A stretch of DNA of 43,041 bases, taken from positions 1 through 43,041 of the IMG/VR virus record IMGVR_UViG_2744054964_000002; one strand, written 5' to 3'. This stretch comes from a virus (Duplodnaviria; Heunggongvirae; Uroviricota; Caudoviricetes). The position numbers and the translations under genes are program-made. Within the stretch, counting starts at the first letter, position 1; the number at the start of each line of letters is the position of its first letter. Positions 6,349-22,622 of the stretch are shown here, piece by piece. Under the pieces are notes generated by a model. The model ran no database searches. It had not been told where the DNA came from and saw nothing but the letters and a program-made list of their open reading frames with translations.

Positions 6349-6426
6349 TCAACTTGAATGAGTGCCGGGATGTTTAGCCACGCCCGGCGCGTGCTCTCCT
6401 GCTATTCCCCAACAGCAAGAAATCGC

Positions 6427-6768
6427 TTACTCTTTAATTTCCCCAGCAGTAGAAAGGATATATTCATGCAAACCATGCGGACCGTGTGCCCTGACTGCGG
6501 AAGTGAGATGTTCAACCAGCCCGATGATTTTGACTTTGAGACAAATTTCACCGGCGTCAGTTGTGCTGACTGTGGTCGAGAAATCACTAAGGACGATGTT
6601 GTCAATCAGGCCACGGACACGGTCAAAAAACAGATCGACGACATGCTCAGGAATTCCCTGAAAGGAACTGGCTGGAAGTTCAAGTAACTTTAAAAGCTCC
6701 CCGGTCTGAGTAAGTACCTCGCTGGCGTCTACGTTAAGCAGTAGTGGCGCCGTTTTTTTATCTGCCAT
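6427..6768 (-). CDS. Hypothetical protein (113 aa); competes with the antisense ORF 6466-6687
   Basis: ATG at 6766-6768 preceded by GAGGAG RBS (5-nt spacer); same orientation as the surrounding leftward operon; followed by the candidate terminator at 6325-6348. No recognisable domain. Confidence 0.4.
   Translation of the reverse strand: MADKKTAPLLLNVDASEVLTQTGELLKLLELPASSFQGIPEHVVDLFFDRVRGLIDNIVLSDFSTTVSTTDAGEICLKVKIIGLVEHLTSAVRAHGPHGLHEYILSTAGEIKE
6466..6687 (+). CDS. Hypothetical small zinc-ribbon protein (73 aa); antisense to 6427-6768
   Basis: Internal ATG at 6466 with AAGGA RBS; paired CxxCG motifs (CPDCG ... CADCG, 19 residues apart) typical of a zinc ribbon; third-position GC looks higher than in the opposing frame (hand count). 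Confidence 0.35.
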   Translation: MQTMRTVCPDCGSEMFNQPDDFDFETNFTGVSCADCGREITKDDVVNQATDTVKKQIDDMLRNSLKGTGWKFK

Positions 6769-7313
6769 ACACACTCCTCTTTTTGTTTACCGTCAGCCCC
6801 TCGCAAAGAGCTGCTGGTAAACTTCGCCACACTCTCGCAGTGGCCGCGCACATGCCCTTGAGACCTTGTCGCTCATCGCCGCTCATAACCGGTGCGCGTC
6901 TGGCGTTCGCGCTGCTTTACCGGAGCTTGTTTTGATATAAGAACCTTGACCCATCACTACACAGGCTCGCCATTCGGCGACTCAGGGCGGCATCATTACT
7001 GCTGCATTGCCTTTAGGCTGCGGTCTGTCCGCTTTAGTTCTTCATTGGAATCACTCCTCTAAGTTGAATCAGCGCCCCATCATCGGAGCGCTTCAAATTG
7101 AGTGACTTATCAGCTCATCGCAGCGTGGTCCTCTACACCTACCGTACGCATACGGACTCAGTGCTTACCTCGATCCCATCGGGTGCCATTTCTTTTTGCC
7201 AGGAGAGCTACGGCTTGCCTGTCACTCAGTCTGATTTGTTAAAGAAGCAGGCGACTTGCTGTCCGCCGCTGGCTAACTTCGCTCAGCTGTCGATGTTTCG
7301 TTTCGATGAGCTG

Positions 7314-7342
7314 ATTATTAACTAATGGTTATTTTCAGTCAA
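7314..7342 (-). promoter_or_regulatory. Candidate leftward sigma70 promoter (possible pL)
   Basis: On the minus strand TTGACT (7342-7337), 16-17-nt spacer, then TAATAA/AATAAT (7320-7314); embedded in an AT-rich TGGTTA repeat region. Hexamer match only. Confidence 0.3.
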
Positions 7343-7460
7343 TAACCATTGGTTAATTATTTTGCCGTTGGTTATTAAGGTTATGATTTATTGGTTAATT
7401 TAGTTCTGTTATGGATTTGTGCAGTACGTGCTATGCTGCAAAAAACATCAGGAGGTAGCT

Positions 7461-7667
7461 ATGGAACGAGATGAACGTGCAGATGAACGAATAGCCTTCA
7501 TGGCTGGAGAGGTTGGGTGCGTAGTGTTCGAGCTGGTTTATAACGGAATTGAAATCAATAAGGACAACATTGTGGGATTTCTGGAAGGGAAGCGCAAAGC
7601 CGTAGGAAACGTGATCCATAAGGGGATGCTACGGGATGCGGCTGAGATGGTGCGGAAGGGCAAATAA
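7461..7667 (+). CDS. Hypothetical protein (68 aa)
   Basis: ATG at 7461 preceded by AGGAGG RBS and an extended -10 like element (TGcTATGCT, 7429-7437); convergent with the cI-adjacent cassette. Confidence 0.4.
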   Translation: MERDERADERIAFMAGEVGCVVFELVYNGIEINKDNIVGFLEGKRKAVGNVIHKGMLRDAAEMVRKGK

Positions 7668-7686
7668 AAACCCGGCGCTGGCCGGG
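7662..7686 (-). terminator. Rho-independent terminator ending the cI-adjacent cassette
   Basis: Perfect 6-bp GC stem CCCGGC-GCUG-GCCGGG (7671-7686) followed on the minus strand by UUUUUAUUU, starting 8 nt after the stop of the 7695-8045 gene. Confidence 0.6.
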
Positions 7687-7694
7687 TGATAGCG

Positions 7695-8045
7695 CTATTT
7701 CAAAACAAGTCCGTTTAAAGCATCAAGAATTTTAGAAACATAATTACCGAATACATAAACACAAAAAGCAAACACAACTGATAGAATGGCAGAAGAAGCT
7801 TTAAGTGTTGTCTTCATGGATTTTACTCCATTTTCGATTTCACTCAGCCTTGAGTCGATGCTCTTAATGTCTGATTTAATCTCAGCAATATCTCGCTTAA
7901 TGTATTCTACATCGGATTCTAAGCGTGCAACTCTGTATTGCATGTCATCGCCTCCGCCATTACCGTTGCCATGCCTCAAAGTATGCACGTTGAATTCTTC
8001 GTTAGCAACTGGTTGGCTTCGTTTGAGATATGCTGAATTTGCCAT
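7695..8045 (-). CDS. Coiled-coil protein with C-terminal transmembrane helix (XhlA-like architecture); cassette gene B
   Basis: 116-aa ORF; Gly-rich N-terminus (HGNGNGGGDD), heptad-like coiled coil (RLESDVEYIKRDIAEIKSDIKSIDSRLSEIENGVKSMK), hydrophobic C-terminal segment (AILSVVFAFCVYVFGNYV). Start is 1 nt after the stop of gene A. AT-rich by eye. Confidence 0.6.
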   Translation of the reverse strand: MANSAYLKRSQPVANEEFNVHTLRHGNGNGGGDDMQYRVARLESDVEYIKRDIAEIKSDIKSIDSRLSEIENGVKSMKTTLKASSAILSVVFAFCVYVFGNYVSKILDALNGLVLK

Positions 8046-8046
8046 G

Positions 8047-8472
8047 TCAGACTTTCCATTCTTTTGATAAGTAGAAATAACACTCTGAATCGTGAACTAA
8101 TCTACTTTTATCTTTATCATCAATGACATGAAGTGACAGTGTTACCTTGTAAACACCCTCTTCTTTAACAAGGATGTTCATCAGAGACATATTTTCAATG
8201 CTTACTGACTCACTTCCAGAGGTCGTGCCAGCCACAATAGGGTCTGATTGCAATGACTGACCACTACCGAAATCAATTCTCTGGTCGCCAAAAAATAGGT
8301 CTACATCAACACGATAGTTAACTTTAGTTTTAATAATTAGCCCAAAGGAAACGTCAATGCTGATTTTCCCTGAGTGCTCATCTGGCTTTATCCATGGCTG
8401 TGGATAATTTAAGGAGCGCGATATTTTACCGGGAAATATCTGGGATACATATAAAAATGAAATCTTTTCCAT
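8047..8472 (-). CDS. Hypothetical protein (141 aa); cassette gene A
   Basis: ORF with GAGGA RBS 6 nt upstream of the ATG, 72 bp downstream of the cI stop; AT-rich codon usage by eye; no recognised domain. Confidence 0.6.
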   Translation of the reverse strand: MEKISFLYVSQIFPGKISRSLNYPQPWIKPDEHSGKISIDVSFGLIIKTKVNYRVDVDLFFGDQRIDFGSGQSLQSDPIVAGTTSGSESVSIENMSLMNILVKEEGVYKVTLSLHVIDDKDKSRLVHDSECYFYLSKEWKV

Positions 8473-8544
8473 CGCTTATCCTCGTTAGCAAGCTATTTGT
8501 TACCAGATCTTCCCATGATCACTAACCCATCAGCATCTTCGTCT

Positions 8545-9321
8545 CTACAGCAGCACCGAGTACCAGAAGAGACGGCCAATTATCTCGACATCATCAATAT
8601 CAGCCTCTTCGTCTGGGTAGGAGTCGTTGTTGTAACTGCGGATGATCAGCTTCCCACCTGGCTTACGATACAGTTGTTTAATGCGCTTGAGTTGACCATT
8701 CCCGCCATCTGTCTGACCAATGGCATACAGTTTCCCATCAACTATGCGTTTGTTGTTCGTATCGACGGCTACAGTCGTACCATCCGGTATCACAGGTTCC
8801 ATGCTGTCGCCAGTAGCAGGGAAACACAGGATGCCAGACCCATCTGTGTTAGCTCCAACGCGGCGGAGGGTTGCCTTTGAGAACCTGAGCTTAAAACCAT
8901 TGTGATCTTCGCTGTGTACGCGTCCATCGCCACACGCAAATTCAATATCCTTAAGAAACGGCACTTCAACCTCGTCAGCAGGAAGCGGTGTGTTTTTATC
9001 CCAGGCGTCAACAGTTCCCCATTCAGATTCTGGAGGGATAGATGACTCCCTACGCAGTTCAGGTTCGGGATCATTCCTTCCGTATTCAAGCCACTCAGGC
9101 CGTACCCCAAGCCAGCGGCTAAGGGCAAGGATATTGGTTTGGTCTGGTATCGCTGATGCGTTAAGCCATTTCCAGATCCCGGGCTCAGATACAGTAATTC
9201 CTTGGGACTTCATAGCCTCTCTGATCCTACCAGCCTGCCCACGACCACCAACGCCAGCATCAAGCAATGCAGCGCGAAGTCTTTTCGAGAATTCTTCTTT
9301 TAAATCGTCTTTTTTAACCAT
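8545..9321 (-). CDS. cI: CI-like prophage repressor (N-terminal HTH, C-terminal LexA/S24-type autocleavage domain)
   Basis: 258-aa ORF; C-terminal domain contains the S24 serine motif (ATGDSMEP) and downstream lysine (KRIVDGKLYAIG); divergent from a cro-like gene across an operator-bearing intergenic region. Confidence 0.9.
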   Translation of the reverse strand: MVKKDDLKEEFSKRLRAALLDAGVGGRGQAGRIREAMKSQGITVSEPGIWKWLNASAIPDQTNILALSRWLGVRPEWLEYGRNDPEPELRRESSIPPESEWGTVDAWDKNTPLPADEVEVPFLKDIEFACGDGRVHSEDHNGFKLRFSKATLRRVGANTDGSGILCFPATGDSMEPVIPDGTTVAVDTNNKRIVDGKLYAIGQTDGGNGQLKRIKQLYRKPGGKLIIRSYNNDSYPDEEADIDDVEIIGRLFWYSVLL

Positions 9322-9405
9322 TCGTTAATTATCAATTAGAGTTGACATAACTGTCAGTTAAGATATAACCTTAACTCGTAGTTAATATAGTTAACGGAAA
9401 ACACT
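9322..9405. promoter_or_regulatory. OR-like operator/promoter region between cI and cro
   Basis: Palindromic TTAACT/AGTTAA half-site pairs (TAACTGTCAGTTA at 9348-9360; TTAACTCGTAGTTAA at 9371-9385; GTTAAC at 9391-9396) overlapping a strong rightward promoter: -35 TTGACA (9342-9347), 16-nt spacer, -10 TATAAC (9364-9369). Confidence 0.65.
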
Positions 9406-13843: not shown

Positions 13844-14598
13844 GCACTATTGCCCGAGAATTCACCAAAGAGCAGTTACAGCAAATTATCGAAACTGACC
13901 ACGTTCAATGCGGTGAGGCTTCGGCGCTGGCGCGTATCGCGCTGGCATCGCTCGAAGCGGAGCCTGTGGCGTGGCTACTGTCAGGAGGCGGCGCAAAAAA
14001 CAACGTCAGCTTCGATAGTGGCAATGCTTATGCCGACCCGCTGCGAGAAGTAACGCCGCTTTACACCGCCCCTCCAGCGCCGGTATCTGTGCCTGATGAG
14101 ATGGAAATGGATGATGACTTTGACAGCGCGTTTGAGCATGGAAAAGCAGTCGGCTGGAACGCCTGCCGCGCCGCCATGCTTCAGGGTGCCGAACCTGTAA
14201 ACCAGAACGATGAGTTACCGCTGGACTATCTGCAAGGCCACAAAGACGGGCTGGAGTGGTCGGCACAACTGGCAGAAGCCAATCATCCGCAAACAGGTGA
14301 CTGGTTGTACGATGACCCAATCGAGCTTGCTAGGGCGATTCGCAAAGGTCCGGATATGCCTACAGCTCAGGATGGCAACTCTCCGGTAACTCCAGATGGT
14401 TGGATTCCGGTAAGCGAGCGGATGCCAAATGATAAAGACTTTGTATGGTGTTGGGGATATGTCTCTGGGTGGACGGAATCAGATGGCTTTGAAGCTTACT
14501 ACGACGCAACTAGAAACAAATGGTGGACCATAGATGACGAAACGGTTCGAAAGGTAACACACTGGATGCCACTTCCAGCAGCACCTCTGTGGGAATGA
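13840..14598 (+). CDS. Hypothetical protein with C-terminal DUF551-like domain
   Basis: 252-aa ORF; C-terminal GWIPVSERMPNDKDFVWCWGY...WWTIDDETVRKVTHWMPLPAAP matches the Trp-rich DUF551 pattern common in lambdoid nin regions. Confidence 0.55.
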   Translation: MSTIAREFTKEQLQQIIETDHVQCGEASALARIALASLEAEPVAWLLSGGGAKNNVSFDSGNAYADPLREVTPLYTAPPAPVSVPDEMEMDDDFDSAFEHGKAVGWNACRAAMLQGAEPVNQNDELPLDYLQGHKDGLEWSAQLAEANHPQTGDWLYDDPIELARAIRKGPDMPTAQDGNSPVTPDGWIPVSERMPNDKDFVWCWGYVSGWTESDGFEAYYDATRNKWWTIDDETVRKVTHWMPLPAAPLWE

Positions 14599-14659
14599 TG
14601 TATAATCCATCTCAATTTATTTAGAGAATTTACTATCACGTATAATGGGAATCGAGTAA

Positions 14660-14944
14660 ATGAGATGGATTTTAGCAATGGCGTTAGTTATGCCAATTTC
14701 AACTTCAATTGCAAAAAACAATGACTCATTTGATTACAAAAGAAAAACAGAGTCAGTTTGCTTTGACCCATCCAATAAAGAAAAGCAAGATTTATGTGAA
14801 AAAATAGTTAAGTCAATGCTGTTGAATGCCGCCTTTGCTGGTTACTCAGAGGCGGCATGTACTGCTAAAATTGTAAAAGATAAACAACGGTGTAAAGCAA
14901 CAGAAGAAGAATACCAAGAATTAATTAGATTCAGCATGCCATAA
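14660..14944 (+). CDS. Small secreted Cys-containing protein (94 aa), AT-rich moron
   Basis: N-terminal signal-peptide-like MRWILAMALVMPISTSIA; four Cys; low GC by eye; two TATAAT hexamers upstream (14605-14610, 14641-14646). Confidence 0.5.
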   Translation: MRWILAMALVMPISTSIAKNNDSFDYKRKTESVCFDPSNKEKQDLCEKIVKSMLLNAAFAGYSEAACTAKIVKDKQRCKATEEEYQELIRFSMP

Positions 14945-15122
14945 ATTGATTTTCCAGAATCAACCCTCCATAATCATGTCATCGGAGCCTGAACAACTCC
15001 GGTGACTTCTGCGCATTTAAGGGGACTTAAATGCGACCACAATCTGAACTCCTCACCTTGTCACAGATGCAGAAATGCACCTGCGATTTTCTGCATTCTG
15101 CGTTACCTCTCGGAGGTGGCGT

Positions 15123-15572
15123 ATGAAGCAGCACTACTGCATCGTTAACGACACCGTTAAAGACAACCTCATCGCGTACATTCGCACCCTACCGGTAAAC
15201 CCTCGTGCGCCAATGGTGGTCGAGGCTCGGGAAGAGACCCGCACCGACAAGCAAAATCGTTTGATGTGGCCGCTGCTGAAAGACCTGTCTGACCAGGTTG
15301 TCTGGCACGGCGAGAAGTTGACCCGCGAAGAGTGGAAGGACCTCATCACCGTTCTGGTGAATCAGACCCAGGACCAGGAACAGAAATCCGCGCCGGGCAT
15401 CAACGGCGGCCGCGTTTATTTCGGCGTCCGCACATCCAAATCCAGCAAGCGTTACATGGTCGATGTGATCGAGGCGATTTACTGGTTCGGTACCGACCGC
15501 GGCGTGAAGTTCTCCGAAGCATCCAATAAGCGCATCGCCTGGGCGCAAGAGTGGAGGACTTCCCGTGGGTAA
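15123..15572 (+). CDS. ninB: NinB (Orf-family recombination mediator)
   Basis: Internal ATG at 15123 after GGAGGTGG RBS; DKQNRLMWPLLKDLSDQVVWHGEKLTREEWKDLI...GVKFSEASNKRIAWAQEWR aligns by eye with lambda NinB. Confidence 0.85.
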   Translation: MKQHYCIVNDTVKDNLIAYIRTLPVNPRAPMVVEAREETRTDKQNRLMWPLLKDLSDQVVWHGEKLTREEWKDLITVLVNQTQDQEQKSAPGINGGRVYFGVRTSKSSKRYMVDVIEAIYWFGTDRGVKFSEASNKRIAWAQEWRTSRG

Positions 15573-16677: not shown

Positions 16678-17033
16678 AAATCTACGACATCACACCAATC
16701 GGCAAGCCTCGCATGACCCGCGCGGATAAGTGGAAGCAGCGTCCACCTGTAATGCGTTACCGCGCTTTTTGCGATGAGGTCCGCCTGCGCAAGTTGACCA
16801 TGCCTGAATCCGGATCACATGTGACATTCGTCCTACCAATGCCACCAAGCTGGAGTAAGAAGAAACGAGCGGAGTTCGCCGGGAAGCCCCACCAGGCCAA
16901 GCCAGACTGCGACAACATGCTGAAAGCCCTGATGGATGCGCTTTATGAGGATGATGCTCACATCTGGGATTGCCGCATCACAAAGGTCTGGGGAGAGAAG
17001 GGGCAGATCATTATTGGGGAGTGCGCGCCGTGA
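16674..17033 (+). CDS. rusA: RusA Holliday-junction resolvase
   Basis: 119-aa ORF; ITPIGKPRMTRADKW...KPDCDNMLKALMDAL matches RusA, including the catalytic Asp-containing DNxxK region. Confidence 0.9.
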   Translation: MKIYDITPIGKPRMTRADKWKQRPPVMRYRAFCDEVRLRKLTMPESGSHVTFVLPMPPSWSKKKRAEFAGKPHQAKPDCDNMLKALMDALYEDDAHIWDCRITKVWGEKGQIIIGECAP

Positions 17034-17142: not shown

Positions 17143-17832
17143 ATGAACAGTCAGCAACTGGAATACGTACGTCAGCAGCTCATTGTGGCGACCGCAGACC
17201 TCAGCGGGGCGACGAAAGGGCAGCTGGTAGCTTTCGCCGAAAACGCGCAGTTCACCGCGACGGCGCGCAGCCGGGGCAGGAAGAAAATCACCGACCCGGT
17301 CACTGGTCGGAAAGTTAACCCTGACGGCCCGGCGATGAGCGGCAGCCAGTCCCGCGCAAAGGGATCATCTATCGCGCTGGTGGGGCCGGTTGAGTTTGTG
17401 ACCGCATCGTGGCGCCGCGCGGTGCTGTCGCTTGAAGACCACCAGAAAGCATGGCTTCTGTGGAACTACAGCGAGAATATCCGCTTCGAGTACCAGGTGG
17501 CGATAACTCAGTGGGCATGGGCAGAGTTCAGGGAACAGCTCGGCGCGAAGAAAGTGGCGGGCAAGACGATGGAGCGCCTGAAGAAGCTTGTCTGGCTCGC
17601 GGCTCAGGACGTGAAAGCAGAGCTGGCAGGGCGTGAGATGTACGAATATCAGGCGCTGGCGTCGCTGGTTGGCGTAACGCCAAAAAACTGGTCAGAGACC
17701 TTTACTGACCGCTGGGTTGAGATGCGCAGCATCTTCCTGCGACTGGATAGCGGGGCTTTATTGCAGGTTACGCGATCACGTTCACAACAAAAGGCGACAA
17801 ATTTAGACTCAAGTCTTGCAAAACTGGATTGA
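17143..17832 (+). CDS. Putative late-gene antiterminator (Q-like)
   Basis: 229-aa ORF located between rusA and the late promoter/terminator, as Q is in lambdoid phages; assignment by position and general resemblance, not a confident family match. Confidence 0.5.
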   Translation: MNSQQLEYVRQQLIVATADLSGATKGQLVAFAENAQFTATARSRGRKKITDPVTGRKVNPDGPAMSGSQSRAKGSSIALVGPVEFVTASWRRAVLSLEDHQKAWLLWNYSENIRFEYQVAITQWAWAEFREQLGAKKVAGKTMERLKKLVWLAAQDVKAELAGREMYEYQALASLVGVTPKNWSETFTDRWVEMRSIFLRLDSGALLQVTRSRSQQKATNLDSSLAKLD

Positions 17833-17844
17833 AACGCATATATT
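17816..17844 (+). promoter_or_regulatory. Candidate late promoter pR' (with expected qut region just downstream)
   Basis: -35 TTGCAA (17816-17821), 17-nt spacer, -10 TATATT (17839-17844); overlaps the 3' end of the Q-like gene. Confidence 0.5.
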
Positions 17845-17897
17845 TCATGTAAATCTGATATCGTCGCCATAGCTTCGTAGGTCGACAAAGAATTAAG

Positions 17898-17922
17898 AAC
17901 CCGCCATCGAGCGGGTTTTTTG
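17898..17922 (+). terminator. Rho-independent terminator (tR'-like)
   Basis: CCCGC-CATCGA-GCGGG stem-loop followed by TTTTTTG, about 50-70 nt downstream of the candidate pR' start. Confidence 0.65.
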
Positions 17923-18190
17923 TCGAAACTTTGTTTTTATATTTGGATTGTTACGTGCATCAAAAAAGATGATGAATAATCCAAAAAAGCCGTTTTTATG
18001 AGCTTTTAATCCCTTTTTTACTTGTCAAATCTGTAATTGACTCGCTATAGTCTGTTTAGTTCTTTATCAAAAAGACTCTTTTAAAGCCTCGTTTTGAGGC
18101 TTTTCGTGTATTTAAAGACCGTAAATCACTACATCTTGTGTTTGTTGTTTTGTTTTTGAGCTAGATGTAGCTATAACGAGGGACAAAATC

Positions 18191-18391
18191 ATGGGCGCTG
18201 CAGAATTTTACGAAAAAGTAGGTATTAAATCAGAGGAACTCCATAAAGGTGAATCTGTACAACACTATGCTATGCGCGTTCTTGCTCAGCAAGACGACCA
18301 GGCTATACGTAGTGGTGTTCTATACTCCTACAGCACTGTAAGTTCAGTTGAAGCTGTAGAGCAACAATCTCATCAACTGTACTCATATTGA
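18191..18391 (+). CDS. Hypothetical small protein (66 aa); first gene of the Q-lysis junction cassette
   Basis: ATG after GAGGGA RBS; AT-rich leader with promoter-like TTGTCA-18nt-TATAGT (18022-18051) and an 8-bp hairpin (18083-18103); no recognised motif. Confidence 0.5.
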   Translation: MGAAEFYEKVGIKSEELHKGESVQHYAMRVLAQQDDQAIRSGVLYSYSTVSSVEAVEQQSHQLYSY

Positions 18392-18403
18392 TAAAAGAAG
18401 AAC

Positions 18404-19303
18404 ATGCCAAATTGGATAGACGTGTTGGGCGAGATGGGTACTATTGCTCAACGTACACCAGCGGATGAGGTTCGCCACAAGTACTTACGAGAGTTGTCGA
18501 AGCATACAGGCCGAAACGTAATTTCATATTACTCAGGCTTCCTCCAGAAGGGGGGGCCTGGGTTGCAGCATTTAATACAAATGTCAGATGACGATAAAAA
18601 TGGTCTTATGTCAGCCATTAACGGCTTAGACACGTCATTAGGGCTGGATATCTTGCTTCATACCCCAGGGGGAGATATTGCAGCATTGGAATCTATTGGT
18701 CATTATCTTCGTTCAAAATTTGGGACCAATATCCGGGCAATTGTTCCTATGATCTCAATGAGTTGTGGGACCATGTTGGCTTGCTGTGCCGAACAGATTG
18801 TATTGGGCAAACAGTCAAATTTGGGGCCAATTGATCCGCAGCTTGGTGGTTTATCATCTCATGCGATCATAGAAGAGTATGAGCGAGCTAAGAAAGAGAT
18901 TTCTGAAAATGCTGCAGCGATCCAATGGTGGCAATTTACTCTTCAAAAGCTAAACCCGACTCTCATTGGTGAATGTGAAAAGGCTATTGTTTGGGCTAAT
19001 GAAATAGTACAAAAATGGCTGTGTACTGGTATGTTTGCAGGTCATGCTAACGCTCAAGATAAGGCTAAGCGAATTTGTGATGAGCTAAACAATCATCATA
19101 CAACCTATGCGCATGCTAGACATATTCATCTGGATAAAGCGCAAAGCATTGGTTTGAACATTATGGAGCTGGAGAGCGACCAAACTCTGCAGGATCTTGT
19201 GCTGACTATACATCATTGCTACATGCATTCATTTGGTACGAGTCCTGCTGCGAAAATTATTGAAAATCATAATGGCAGCACGATGATGTGGAATATTCGC
19301 TAA
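18404..19303 (+). CDS. ClpP/crotonase-fold serine peptidase-like protein (S49/SDH-like); second cassette gene
   Basis: 299-aa ORF; LLHTPGGDI resembles the xxSPGG oxyanion-hole motif of ClpP/SppA-fold peptidases; candidate nucleophile in MISMSCGTMLA; AT-rich by eye. Family call is motif-based only. Confidence 0.55.
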   Translation: MPNWIDVLGEMGTIAQRTPADEVRHKYLRELSKHTGRNVISYYSGFLQKGGPGLQHLIQMSDDDKNGLMSAINGLDTSLGLDILLHTPGGDIAALESIGHYLRSKFGTNIRAIVPMISMSCGTMLACCAEQIVLGKQSNLGPIDPQLGGLSSHAIIEEYERAKKEISENAAAIQWWQFTLQKLNPTLIGECEKAIVWANEIVQKWLCTGMFAGHANAQDKAKRICDELNNHHTTYAHARHIHLDKAQSIGLNIMELESDQTLQDLVLTIHHCYMHSFGTSPAAKIIENHNGSTMMWNIR

Positions 19304-19326
19304 ACGATATATCCTCGAATCACATA

Positions 19327-19352
19327 AGGCCACCTTCGGGTGGCCTTTTTTA
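19327..19352 (+). terminator. Rho-independent terminator closing the cassette
   Basis: AGGCCACC-TTCG-GGTGGCCT (8-bp stem) followed by TTTTTT. Confidence 0.7.
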
Positions 19353-19397
19353 TTCCCCTCATTCCTGAGAGGACTCACAGCAATAAGAGGGGGCTTA

Positions 19398-19793
19398 ATG
19401 TCCGATCCTGTTTCTGGCACTACGGTCGCGGCTGGTGGCCTGATGGGAGCCAGCGTATTTGGTCTTGCAACCGGTATTGATTATGGCGTGGTATTTGGCG
19501 CATTCGCTGGTGCAGTATTTTATGTAGCGACAGCGGCAAATATCACACGAGTACGATTGATTGCTTACTTCATGACGTCATTCATTGTTGGCGTTCTTGC
19601 CGCTGGACTGGTGGGTTCAAAGCTGTCACAGGCTACCGGGTATAGTGACAGACCATTAGACGCACTTGGTGCTGTTGTAGTGGCGGCGATGACAATCAAA
19701 GTGCTCACATTTTTCAACAGTCAGGATTTGGGAAGCCTGTTCAGTATTCTTTCGCGATTCCGTGGAGGAGGGGCCAGCAATGGTAACAAGTGA
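19398..19793 (+). CDS. Putative holin (multi-pass membrane protein)
   Basis: 131-aa ORF after AGAGGGGG RBS; three hydrophobic segments rich in Gly/Ala; immediately upstream of the endolysin. Confidence 0.65.
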   Translation: MSDPVSGTTVAAGGLMGASVFGLATGIDYGVVFGAFAGAVFYVATAANITRVRLIAYFMTSFIVGVLAAGLVGSKLSQATGYSDRPLDALGAVVVAAMTIKVLTFFNSQDLGSLFSILSRFRGGGASNGNK

Positions 19794-20061
19794 TCCGTCA
19801 GCGATGGTGAATGCAGGTATTTGTGCGGTCATCGTCCTTGTCCTGATGTTCTACCAGCGTGAAGGGGCAAGACATCGCCCCGCTATATCATTGCTGGCGT
19901 ACTTCGTTGTGCTGGTTTATGCCAGCGTTCCATTCCGATATCTGTTCGGCCTCTACCAGGAGTCACACTGGATGGTGGTCATCGTAAACCTTCTTATTTG
20001 CGCTGCCGTGTTATGGGCTCGTGGGAATGTGGCGCGTCTCGTTGATACGCTGAGGCATTAA
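19780..20061 (+). CDS. Second lysis-cassette membrane protein (holin/antiholin-like)
   Basis: 93-aa ORF from ATG 19780 (GGAGGAGGGG RBS), overlapping the holin stop; at least two hydrophobic helices; stop overlaps the endolysin ATG (TAATG). Confidence 0.5.
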   Translation: MVTSDPSAMVNAGICAVIVLVLMFYQREGARHRPAISLLAYFVVLVYASVPFRYLFGLYQESHWMVVIVNLLICAAVLWARGNVARLVDTLRH

Positions 20062-20678
20062 TGAACCAATCACAATTTCAACAGGCGGCTGGTGTAAGCG
20101 CCGGGTTAGCTACGCGCTGGTTTCCGCACATTGACGCGGCAATGAAAGAGTTCGGCATTGTTAAGCCTGAAGACCAGGCAATGTTTATTGCTCAGTCAGG
20201 ACATGAATCAGCGGGATTCTCTGCGCTGGTGGAGAGCTTCAACTACACCCCAGCCGCTCTGCTGACCACATTTGGACGCCGCATTACGAACTATCAGGCA
20301 TATATGCTTGGGCGTGACAAAGAAAAAGGGCACGTAGCCAATCAGCCAGCCATTGCAAATCTGGTGTACAGCAATCGCCTCGGTAACAAAGCATCAGGCG
20401 ATGGGTGGAAATATCGTGGCCGTGGGCTGATTCAGATTACCGGTCTTGATAATTACCGCCGCTGCGGAACGGGATTAAAACTGGATTTAGTCAGTAATCC
20501 TGAGTTGCTGGAAAAGGATATCAACGCGGCACGTTCAGCTGCATGGTTCTACGCCACCAGCGGATGCCTGAGCTATTCCGGCGATCTGGTTCGCATCACC
20601 CAGATCATCAATGGTGGACAGAACGGCATTAACGACCGTCGTGCACGCTACGCCAAAGCAAAAGCCGCACTGGTATGA
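20061..20678 (+). CDS. Endolysin, glycoside hydrolase family 19 (chitinase-like lysozyme)
   Basis: 205-aa ORF; FIAQSGHESAGF and YRGRGLIQITGLDNY are GH19 catalytic-region motifs; high overall similarity by eye to known Salmonella-phage GH19 endolysins. Confidence 0.9.
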   Translation: MNQSQFQQAAGVSAGLATRWFPHIDAAMKEFGIVKPEDQAMFIAQSGHESAGFSALVESFNYTPAALLTTFGRRITNYQAYMLGRDKEKGHVANQPAIANLVYSNRLGNKASGDGWKYRGRGLIQITGLDNYRRCGTGLKLDLVSNPELLEKDINAARSAAWFYATSGCLSYSGDLVRITQIINGGQNGINDRRARYAKAKAALV

Positions 20679-20961: not shown

Positions 20962-21127
20962 TACCGCCTGTGATTGGGTAAAGCCCATCTATCTTACTGA
21001 CCACGATATTGCCGTTATGGATAAGCAGACGAAGCGCGACATCCTAGTGCATAACAAAGCATGGAAGGTGAACTGTAATCCCAAAAAGGTAAAGACGAGC
21101 ACTCTAAAATTTGTGGACAAGCCATGA
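20876..21127 (+). CDS. o-spanin (Rz1-like lipoprotein), overlapping the i-spanin in another frame
   Basis: 83-aa ORF starting inside the Rz-like gene; signal/lipobox-like TMLIVSC followed by a Pro-containing mature region. Confidence 0.6.
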   Translation: MYSRVLTICLATMLIVSCATTGPAPVVVDTACDWVKPIYLTDHDIAVMDKQTKRDILVHNKAWKVNCNPKKVKTSTLKFVDKP

Positions 21128-21189
21128 AGTACCCGTTATCCTTTCTATAGGATTCCAAAGGAATACCATAGGAAACCAAAGGTAACATT

Positions 21190-21441
21190 ATGGCAAAAAC
21201 ATATTTCCCCATCGAAGACTCTGTAGAGTTAGTGACAGCATCTAAACCACACCCAAGTAACACGCATTACAAAGTTTCTCGTGGAACTGAAATCTGGGAT
21301 GGTGAAAATGTTGAGGTAATCAAAGTTCAGATGGTTTACAACGGCGAAGTGGCCGGAAGAAGAAGCCCTTCATATCCCGTTGGGACTGATGATTATCAAC
21401 GTGTCCATTTAGCTATAGAAAAAATCATCAGGTCAAGATAA
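21190..21441 (+). CDS. Hypothetical protein (83 aa)
   Basis: ORF preceded by two 15-bp direct repeats (21147-21182) and followed by a terminator. Confidence 0.5.
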   Translation: MAKTYFPIEDSVELVTASKPHPSNTHYKVSRGTEIWDGENVEVIKVQMVYNGEVAGRRSPSYPVGTDDYQRVHLAIEKIIRSR

Positions 21442-21448
21442 AAGCAAA

Positions 21449-21471
21449 AGGTCGCTTAGGCGGCCTTTTTT
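21449..21471 (+). terminator. Rho-independent terminator
   Basis: AGGTCGC-TTAG-GCGGCCT stem (one G-U pair) followed by TTTTTT. Confidence 0.5.
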
Positions 21472-21679
21472 CATCGATAATACATTCACTGGGTTATATC
21501 CAATCCCGTGGTTGAGAGGCATGCTGTATTGCTACTCGACTAACTGCATTACAGAAAGCATTCACTGAGTGCCTGCGATAATGCAAATTGACGGACTCGT
21601 CAGAAATCCTTTACAAAACATGATGTTGAATTAAATTGTTGCGTGGGTTAGCTTGAGGTTAGTTCACACAGGAGGTCAT

Positions 21680-21922
21680 ATGTCACAATCAGCGCTTGCT
21701 ACTGAATTAGAACTCACTGACGATGAGTTGGATTCCATACCTCTATCACCTGAAGACCTTGAGGAGAATACAGGGCATTCAGGCGATATGGTATATGAGT
21801 ACTATTTCTATGTTCCCGATACTACCCCTGAAGATATTCTTAGCAAGAAAGGATGGGAAATAGGTGAGTGTGTTTACTTATCTATTAATGTTTTTGATGA
21901 CCCGGATTCGGAGCAAGAATAG
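21680..21922 (+). CDS. Small highly acidic protein (80 aa)
   Basis: ATG at 21680 after AGGAGG RBS; about 30 percent Asp/Glu (ELELTDDELDSIPLSPEDLEE...DDPDSEQE); own terminator downstream. Confidence 0.5.
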   Translation: MSQSALATELELTDDELDSIPLSPEDLEENTGHSGDMVYEYYFYVPDTTPEDILSKKGWEIGECVYLSINVFDDPDSEQE

Positions 21923-21938
21923 AACGATAAGCATAATG

Positions 21939-21961
21939 CACCGCCTCCGGGCGGTTTTTTT
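21939..21961 (+). terminator. Rho-independent terminator
   Basis: CCGCC-TCCG-GGCGG stem followed by TTTTTTT. Confidence 0.65.
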
Positions 21962-21983
21962 ATGTCAGTACACTGGAGCGTTT

Positions 21984-22622
21984 ATGGCAACACTCAAAGA
22001 CCTTTCTCAGCAATTAAAGAAGGTACAAAAGCAGGTGCCATATGCTACAGCACTAGCTATGACAAAAGTTGTTCGTCAAATAGAAACGGCACAGAAAACA
22101 GCGTTCGAACGACATCTGGAGAGCCCGACACCGTTTACCGTTAAATCAGTTGGTTCGGTGGCGGCAAGGAAGAACAACCTGACTGCAAAGGTTTTTGTCC
22201 GCGATACCGCGGCTGGTTATCTGGAACCATTCGAGTTAGGTGGAGAGCATAAGCTCAATAGCCAAGCGCTATTGAACCCCAAGAACGTCAAGCTAAACAA
22301 ATACGGCAACATGCCGCGTAATAAGCTCTCACAGCTTAAAGCAAAGGAAAATGTATTCGTAGGTGAGGTTGATGGCGTTAACGCTGTCTGGCAGCGTAAG
22401 AAGCCGATGAAAGCTAAGAAGCGACGGGCCAAACGTTCCGCTAACGGGACGCGAAGACCGAAACGCAAACAGCGTTCTCCAAAGCTTTTGATCCGGTTTG
22501 GTGATGCGCTACCTGTGACTCCAGTGCTGGGGTATATGGATAGGGCCCGTACCATGGCGAACGCACTGCTACCGTCTGCTTTAAATCAGGCGATAGCAGA
22601 AGCCATCAGGACGGCAAAATAA
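21984..22622 (+). CDS. Hypothetical protein with basic Lys/Arg-rich segment (212 aa)
   Basis: Internal ATG at 21984 (the upstream part of the track ORF contains the terminator); KKPMKAKKRRAKRSANGTRRPKRKQR basic tract; no confident family. Confidence 0.5.
   Translation: MATLKDLSQQLKKVQKQVPYATALAMTKVVRQIETAQKTAFERHLESPTPFTVKSVGSVAARKNNLTAKVFVRDTAAGYLEPFELGGEHKLNSQALLNPKNVKLNKYGNMPRNKLSQLKAKENVFVGEVDGVNAVWQRKKPMKAKKRRAKRSANGTRRPKRKQRSPKLLIRFGDALPVTPVLGYMDRARTMANALLPSALNQAIAEAIRTAK

Follow-up and report, generated by a model that had tools for sequence, protein, structure and literature searches.

A two-gene cassette in the rexAB position of a lambdoid prophage: a candidate anti-phage module with a shared membrane core and exchangeable partners

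What do the two small genes do that lie directly downstream of the cI-like repressor in the virus genome IMGVR_UViG_2744054964_000002 (IMG/VR; Caudoviricetes), of which we analyzed positions 1 to 43,041 (the window, 43,041 nucleotides (nt) in all)? In lambda this place is held by rexAB, the first abortive-infection system, which came from the cI-N slot of a lambdoid phage and whose mechanism is still debated. The cI-N slot is a known mosaic hotspot, carrying rexAB in lambda and bstA in prophage BTP1 (PMC8585504). A first-pass annotation, made from the sequence alone, had proposed that the gene pair, here named A and B, is a candidate superinfection-exclusion or abortive-infection module. This defence reading is plausible and is now better supported than before. 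Tentatively, we consider A-B to be a two-part module expressed in the lysogen that, once triggered, would most likely damage or block the inner membrane and so defend the cell from other phages; the cassette family as a whole is probably an anti-phage or exclusion module.

The pair consists of the following genes:
8047..8472, minus strand: gene A, encoding a protein of 141 amino acids (aa), a predicted cytoplasmic, stand-alone beta-sandwich of family phrog_5881 and the proposed sensor or adaptor
7695..8045, minus strand: gene B, encoding a 116-aa protein with a predicted C-terminal membrane anchor

The two open reading frames (ORFs) are tightly coupled on the same strand, as had been described, with a single base between the stop codon of A and the start codon of B (junction TGAcATG). 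Both are genuine genes, since each has dozens of conserved homologues and the structural model of A is confident. A programmed frameshift fusing A to B was considered and rejected because the junction holds no slippery or re-pairing site and the overlaps vary among loci (-56 to +8 nt). A lambdoid prophage of Escherichia coli, 88COLEC, is colinear with the window, and both A and B are annotated there as 'hypothetical protein'. The window is nearly identical to this prophage from the integrase gene to approximately position 17015 and then diverges sharply, indicating that the late region derives from another phage lineage.

The surroundings of the pair match those of a repressor operon:
9328..9357, minus strand: PRM-like promoter (CTGACA-18-GATAAT) immediately preceding the start codon of the repressor gene (consensus scan)
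8545..9321, minus strand: cI-like repressor of 258 aa with a helix-turn-helix and an S24 autocleavage domain (PF00717, E=1.2e-15; phrog_4, E=2.8e-43)
8473..8544, minus strand: spacer of 72 nt between cI and A, with a GAGGA ribosome-binding site (sequence and scan)
7670..7687, minus strand: intrinsic terminator with a 7-bp stem, 6 of the pairs being G-C, followed by TTTTTATTT (scan)
7342..7314, minus strand: pL-like promoter, TTGACT-17-AATAAT, overlapping an inverted repeat with 17-bp arms (7317..7357)

The first-pass annotation had placed a cI-like repressor directly upstream on the same strand and a terminator at 7662-7686. The former is borne out by the Peptidase_S24 and phrog_4 ('transcriptional repressor') matches, and the latter is present, at 7687..7670 by our scan. 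According to the consensus scan, 9328..9357 is the sole promoter-like minus-strand site ahead of the cassette, the next one being at 7342, and neither a promoter-like site nor a terminator was detected by scan in the 72-nt spacer. The terminator hairpin follows B directly, folds together with its flanks at -13.7 kcal/mol (RNAfold), and is conserved in sequence with loci L019, L018 and L002 of the comparative set described below (blastn). It closes the predicted cI-A-B unit as the counterpart of lambda Timm, and region 7314..7357 is probably oL/pL. The order PRM, cI, A, B, terminator, pL is therefore the lambda arrangement PRM, cI, rexA, rexB, Timm, pL, and a lambda-type arrangement is annotated in the lambda-immunity record EF120460. 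The PRM-like promoter, the short spacer, the 1-nt junction and the terminator suggest that A and B would be co-transcribed with cI as one unit.

The cassette differs in base composition from the DNA around it. Its GC content is 0.378 versus a window mean of 0.518, the lowest of all 778-nt stretches in the 43-kb window, and GC at third codon positions is 0.35 in A and 0.33 in B versus 0.46-0.69 in the neighbouring genes. The cassette had been described as AT-rich and suggested to be acquired, and this comparison with the flanking genes confirms a foreign composition. GC was also below that of the flanks in 74 of 75 unique related cassettes. Two more stretches of the window have a GC content below 0.42 (14271..15219 and 20971..22099) and may be other acquired cargo.

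To place the pair among its relatives, we assembled 112 loci with a B-like gene from genomes, IMG/VR and assemblies. A small same-strand partner gene lies directly upstream of B in 110 of the 112, with gaps mostly of -56 to +8 nt. This partner is an A-type beta-sandwich in 71 loci, one of several Cys4 zinc-ribbon proteins of 75-154 aa in approximately 25 (e.g., Enterobacter phage ENT1, phrog_4293), and a member of the 90-113-aa family phrog_4231 in 9; these partner classes are unrelated to each other. An S24 repressor directly precedes the pair in at least 80 of the 112 loci, the repressors falling into 19 clusters at 60% identity. The spacer between repressor and partner is short, with a median length of 31.5 nt; in 46 of the 48 unique combinations it does not exceed 100 nt. 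In one beta-sandwich subtype (145 and 123 aa) the pair occupies the rexAB slot, with a near-lambda cI of 237 aa (accompanied by a lambda-type Cro) on one side and N on the other. Of 5426 complete E. coli genomes, 16 carry this lambda-immunity subtype, among them enteropathogenic E. coli (EPEC) E2348/69 (E2348C_RS13570/13575), and 1 carries the cassette type of the window. Relatives were found also in loci from Vibrio, Shewanella, Pseudoalteromonas and Pseudomonas, and remote relatives of A (36% identity, or profile E-values of 1e-20 to 1e-8) are followed by a protein of B architecture in all 3 cases with downstream sequence. Phage HK225 carries the repressor type of the window with different cargo, the 94% DNA identity over 8545-9039 breaking off precisely at the stop codon of cI. 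The rexAB position that had been claimed for the pair thus stands: A-B follows cI and precedes the terminator and oL/pL, and its relatives directly follow S24 repressors of 19 types, one subtype lying between a near-lambda cI and N. Being compositionally foreign, self-contained, located in a variable slot and present or absent independently of the backbone, the cassette behaves as a repressor-linked 'moron', and the comparative findings indicate that the pair is a mobile unit tied to the repressor slot and not to one phage backbone. An exception to this slot rule is a Methylocystis metagenome-assembled genome (L016, 4316..4672), where the genes for a prohead protease and an HK97-type capsid protein, and not a repressor gene, precede a distant B-like gene that has the LESDVEYIKRD motif and a partner of 103 aa.

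The slot has taken other kinds of cargo as well. In the lambda-immunity phage mEp234 (EF120460, L123; 1252..2382), hicA-hicB and one hypothetical gene occupy the place between cI and Timm, showing that the cI slot also accepts toxin-antitoxin cargo. This raises the question of whether A-B is itself a toxin-antitoxin-like stabilization pair, in which B would be a membrane toxin and A its antidote, acting on the N-terminus of B. The small sizes, the tight coupling and the position of the putative antidote gene in front fit such a pair, as does the precedent of hicAB in mEp234, yet A-B shows no similarity to known toxin-antitoxin families in Pfam, NCBIfam or PADLOC, and prophage retention is poorly enforced through such modules. 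We therefore regard this explanation as quite unlikely; it also overlaps with abortive infection, as many toxin-antitoxin pairs act in defence.

A module boundary lies within gene B, which has four parts:
7971..8045, minus strand: B residues 1-25, a disordered, partner-type-specific N-terminal peptide (N-peptide), with a predicted local distance difference test score (pLDDT) below 50 over most of residues 1-20
7944..7970, minus strand: B residues 26-34, GNGNGGGDD, a Gly-rich linker and intragenic recombination junction (blastn homology limits)
7800..7943, minus strand: B residues 35-82, a heptad coiled coil with the near-invariant motif RVA(K/R)LESDVEYIKRD (heptad count, AlphaFold2)
7698..7799, minus strand: B residues 83-116, a membrane helix at approximately 83-103 and then a short amphipathic 13-residue tail, SKILDALNGLVLK (hydropathy, AlphaFold2)

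The motif that follows the Gly linker is nearly invariant from Enterobacterales to Vibrio, Shewanella, Pseudomonas and alpha-proteobacterial loci, and almost all family members have a Gly run, whereas the N-peptide differs by partner class. DNA homology breaks at this linker from both sides. With the Klebsiella locus L019, homology covers 8472..7975, which is A plus the first 24 codons of B, and resumes only at the terminator, the B protein of that locus having a different coiled coil and membrane helix from that of the window. With ENT1 (which has a zinc-ribbon partner), the lambda-immunity cassettes and others, homology starts at 7973-7934 and runs through the B core, and in the ENT1 and lambda-immunity loci it continues through the terminator (all blastn). 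Protein comparisons agree with this: when partners were at least 60% identical and cores less than 40%, N-peptide identity was 54%, and when partners were unrelated and cores alike it was 19%, which equals background. Because the DNA homology breaks at the Gly linker, the N-peptide travels with the partner and the membrane core is shared; from the blastn limits and the identity figures, the evolutionary units are the partner plus the B N-peptide on the one hand, and the Gly linker, the B core and the terminator on the other. Swapping of partner and N-peptide at a Gly-linker junction inside the putative effector gene is an unusual feature and clearly demonstrable. Its simplest functional reading is that the partner would bind the N-peptide.

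The protein encoded by B is a predicted membrane-anchored rod. All 14 of the a and d heptad positions in residues 35-82 are hydrophobic, mostly Ile, Val or Leu, and the Kyte-Doolittle profile has its maximum (1.98) at residues 81-99, the single hydrophobic segment. In the AlphaFold2 model residues 1-32 are disordered and residues 33-114 form one continuous helix, with a pLDDT of 84-94 in the coiled coil. Hydropathy, heptad count and model thus agree on the architecture that the first-pass annotation had given, consisting of a Gly-rich N-terminus, a heptad coiled coil and a single C-terminal transmembrane helix. The B family profile matched only generic, mostly trimeric coiled coils in the PDB (e.g., SadA, Lpp, the gp26 tail needle and reovirus sigma-1), which together with the beta-branched core residues suggests that B is a trimer. 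B has no signal peptide, its anchor is C-terminal, and Lys is more frequent on the N side of the membrane helix, consistent with an N-in topology. We infer from these features that the rod and the N-peptide are cytoplasmic and that B is tail-anchored in the inner membrane.

A membrane protein predicted in a repressor operon could also exclude other phages without killing the cell, B and a partner at the cytoplasmic face blocking DNA entry or an early membrane step so that the host survives. Inner-membrane excluders encoded by prophages are known, such as P22 SieA (PMC10883804). However, nearly all of the mass of B and both partner types, the beta-sandwich and the Cys4 zinc ribbon, are predicted to be cytoplasmic, approximately 13 residues being all that could be periplasmic, and a cytoplasmic partner that can be swapped is easier to reconcile with sensing inside the cell than with the block of an entry channel. 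Such non-lethal exclusion seems unlikely to us.

The comparison of B with XhlA-like proteins, also made in the first-pass annotation, holds for architecture but not for homology: the XhlA (PF10779) match of B (E=2e-4, 21.8 bits) is below the gathering score of 34.7 bits, and the gene lies outside the lysis cassette. XhlA was the best or near-best Pfam match in 22 of 26 family members, all below threshold (best E=1.9e-5), and B gave weak PHROG matches named 'hemolysin' and 'holin'. Because every XhlA score is below the gathering threshold, the name 'hemolysin XhlA' that NCBI gives to B homologues is a label and not a result. In a tblastn search of 50,697 phage genomes, matches to B were confined to three Enterobacter phages and, at a weak level, Pseudomonas phage PS-1. 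Fusions of B-like or A-like domains to known domains gave no functional clue among the matches listed (for B, the best 120 of 686), which are small proteins lacking any informative Pfam domain.

Protein A is a member of phrog_5881 (E=6.8e-37), with a more distant match to phrog_5893 (E=3.2e-8); neither family has a known function. It had been described as having no recognizable domain, and scans of Pfam, NCBIfam and PADLOC indeed gave no match. Its AlphaFold2 model (21-sequence alignment) is an eight-strand all-beta fold with a pLDDT of 85 and a predicted template modelling score of 0.80. Foldseek searches with this model returned only generic immunoglobulin (Ig)-like sandwiches in the PDB (E>1e-3, TM-score at most 0.55) and uncharacterized phage proteins of similar size in BFVD (best TM-scores 0.58-0.60), and a sequence-profile search of the PDB returned nothing. 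A profile search of 1.84 billion representative proteins gave 64 clusters, nearly all stand-alone proteins of 140-153 aa, the exception being weak repeat matches in giant Ig-repeat proteins; tblastn of A against the 50,697 phage genomes gave no match. A has no signal peptide, and its N-terminus is a well-modelled strand of the sandwich.

With both folds in hand, a lysis accessory can be weighed, in which B would be an XhlA-type holin helper and A a XepA/YomS-like beta-sandwich, as in xepA-xhlA of PBSX. The similarity of B to XhlA, though below threshold, and the weak 'hemolysin' and 'holin' PHROG matches speak for it, and in PBSX the beta-sandwich gene xepA lies in the lytic cassette of xhlA (PMC6834076). 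The location speaks against it: the cassette is in the repressor operon, on the opposite strand and 11 kb from a complete lysis cassette (17143-20678), and this position is kept in at least 80 loci. A role in lysis is therefore highly improbable. Kinship of A with XepA/YomS and of B with BhlA was examined separately and rejected, as profile comparison (hhalign) gave a probability of 0.2% for A versus YomS and 0.4% for B versus BhlA; neither XepA nor YomS is among the 50 Foldseek PDB matches listed for A. The lysis region contains:
17143..17832, plus strand: antiterminator Q, at the start of the region
19398..20678, plus strand: two holin genes (Phage_holin_8 and Phage_holin_3_7), then a GH19-type endolysin gene

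Two further elements were observed in this region. Directly after Q, at 17848..17920 on the plus strand, there is a match to the Hfq-binding small RNA isrJ (RF01393), whose 58.7 bits exceed the gathering score. A gene for a ClpP-like SDH-type serine protease (18404..19303, plus strand; PF01972, E=2e-21) lies in a low-GC stretch between Q and the holins. Shiga toxin phages carry their toxin genes in the corresponding slot of the late operon.

Another lysogenic-conversion or regulatory role would make A-B a modulator of the lysis-lysogeny switch or a virulence 'hemolysin'. RexA also acts on the lambda switch, according to work cited in PMC12894663, and homologues of B bear the NCBI name 'hemolysin XhlA'. 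That name, however, goes back to a domain label assigned below threshold and not to data; B lacks both a signal peptide and a route of export, and neither A nor B has a DNA-binding fold, which leaves such a role very unlikely.

The defence reading, in which A-B protects the lysogen, can be formulated as a mechanism. In the scheme that we propose, A and B would be expressed in the lysogen from the repressor operon, and B would stand in the inner membrane as a coiled-coil rod anchored by its tail. The specificity element would be A, replaced in other phages by a zinc-ribbon protein; docked on the cytoplasmic N-peptide of B, it would act either as a sensor or as an inhibitor released by a phage product. 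A phage-derived signal would then alter the A-B complex, the B rods would rearrange or cluster, and their membrane helices would make a lesion or block a membrane step. The lesion may depolarize or lyse the cell before the invader matures, and the superinfecting phage would be excluded. This model draws support from the known cargo of the slot (rexAB, bstA and hicAB), from the combination of a conserved effector with a variable sensor, from the foreign composition and from the XhlA-like architecture. In addition, the profile and structure searches gave no homology of A or B to a known function outside defence; such homology would have spoken against the first-pass proposal.

Several observations weigh on the other side. 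No significant match to a defence model was obtained for A, B or the partner types in PADLOC-DB v2.0.0 (systems to 2023), the B types giving only weak generic coiled-coil matches to the LmuB, PbeC, JetC and CorA-like models, and neither A nor B is homologous to RexA/RexB or SieB. The fold of A is generic Ig-like and offers no clue to a ligand or an enzymatic activity. One membrane helix per chain makes a minimal pore former, and pore formation is argued by analogy with XhlA and holins only. The co-inheritance of N-peptide and A could partly reflect the physical linkage of adjacent DNA, and a few distant B-like genes lie outside repressor loci. Across Pfam, NCBIfam, PHROGs and PADLOC, A, B and the alternative partners matched only PHROGs of unknown function (5881, 5893, 6136, 2990, 4293 and 4231) and sub-threshold coiled-coil models. 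The cassette was not found described in full-text and accession searches of the literature or in the DefensePredictor supplements, a coverage that did not extend to Brenes & Laub 2025 (Cell Host Microbe).

A broader reading, possible but doubtful at present, is that these cassettes form a widespread, hitherto unrecognized family of modular prophage immune systems that has replaced rexAB in many lambdoid prophages, with a tail-anchored, probably trimeric effector and interchangeable plug-in sensors recombined at the Gly linker. Within this broader reading each sensor, whether beta-sandwich, zinc-ribbon or other, might, equally doubtfully, dock on its matching N-terminal peptide. Independently of this, a two-gene module that is distinct from rexAB and far smaller fills the rexAB slot in many Enterobacterales prophages, including a lambda-immunity prophage of the model pathogen EPEC E2348/69. 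Should the module serve in defence, sensing and effector activation could readily be studied with short constructs, because the core is conserved and the partner and a 25-residue peptide are swapped as a unit, and the intragenic junction would clearly exemplify how phages reshuffle the specificity of immunity. Otherwise, the two genes still make up a common membrane module with no known role, predicted to be expressed in lysogens and mislabelled in genome annotation as 'hemolysin XhlA'.

The region beyond the cassette terminator holds further small genes. A convergent gene of 68 aa (7461..7667, plus strand; phrog_3975, unknown function) ends at the terminator. Small homologues of it occupy the same place in the Klebsiella, Salmonella and ENT1 loci, and HK225 has one too (gp41) although it lacks the cassette. 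Further on, 6358..6687 on the plus strand encodes a 109-aa CxxC...CxxC protein with the RefSeq name 'ECs_2282 family putative zinc-binding protein', which matches the PADLOC candidate-system model PDC-M14A (E=1.7e-5). This gene overlaps a 115-aa ORF on the minus strand (6427..6774), both being conserved in Enterobacter phage ENT1, and zinc-ribbon proteins also serve elsewhere as the alternative partners of B-like genes.

Among known systems, XhlA, which is reported to be essential for PBSX lysis (PMC6834076, PMC5589764), resembles B: both are small and have a coiled coil between a short N-terminal region and a C-terminal membrane helix. B differs from it in scoring below threshold, in lying in the repressor operon of Gram-negative prophages and in having a Gly linker and a partner-specific N-peptide; XhlA, by contrast, is encoded alongside the holin XhlB and the amidase XlyA in a late lysis cassette. 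BstA of the Salmonella prophage BTP1 is likewise encoded by an accessory gene directly after the prophage repressor, and it has been shown to be highly expressed in the lysogen and to act by abortive infection (PMC8585504). BstA, however, is a single protein that acts at phage DNA replication sites without a membrane component, and it has no homology to A or B. P22 SieA, whose site of action is the inner membrane (PMC10883804), and Staphylococcus aureus PdpSau, which changes the membrane potential when the cell is infected (PMC10127798), are likewise membrane proteins with which a prophage stops other phages. Each is encoded by one gene and has an N-terminal or polytopic anchor, and unlike B they have neither a swappable partner nor a coiled-coil stalk.

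The closest parallel is RexAB. A-B shares with it the slot and orientation after cI and before a Timm-like terminator and pL, and the organization in two genes, the first for a soluble and the second for a membrane product, presumably co-transcribed with cI in the lysogen. There is, however, no relation in sequence or fold, and no Rex family was matched in the Pfam, PHROGs, NCBIfam and PADLOC scans. We know of no Rex counterpart of the intragenic swap of an adaptor peptide. RexAB characteristically excludes T4 rII-type phages, and the membrane potential is lost in the process. RexB has been described as an ion channel (PMC8585504), whereas B is not a polytopic channel and has one C-terminal helix under a long coiled coil; RexA is reported to be a DNA-binding sensor (PMC12894663), whereas A is a predicted 141-aa beta-sandwich. 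Altogether, the A-B module appears to be RexAB-like in position and logic and to be built from unrelated proteins.

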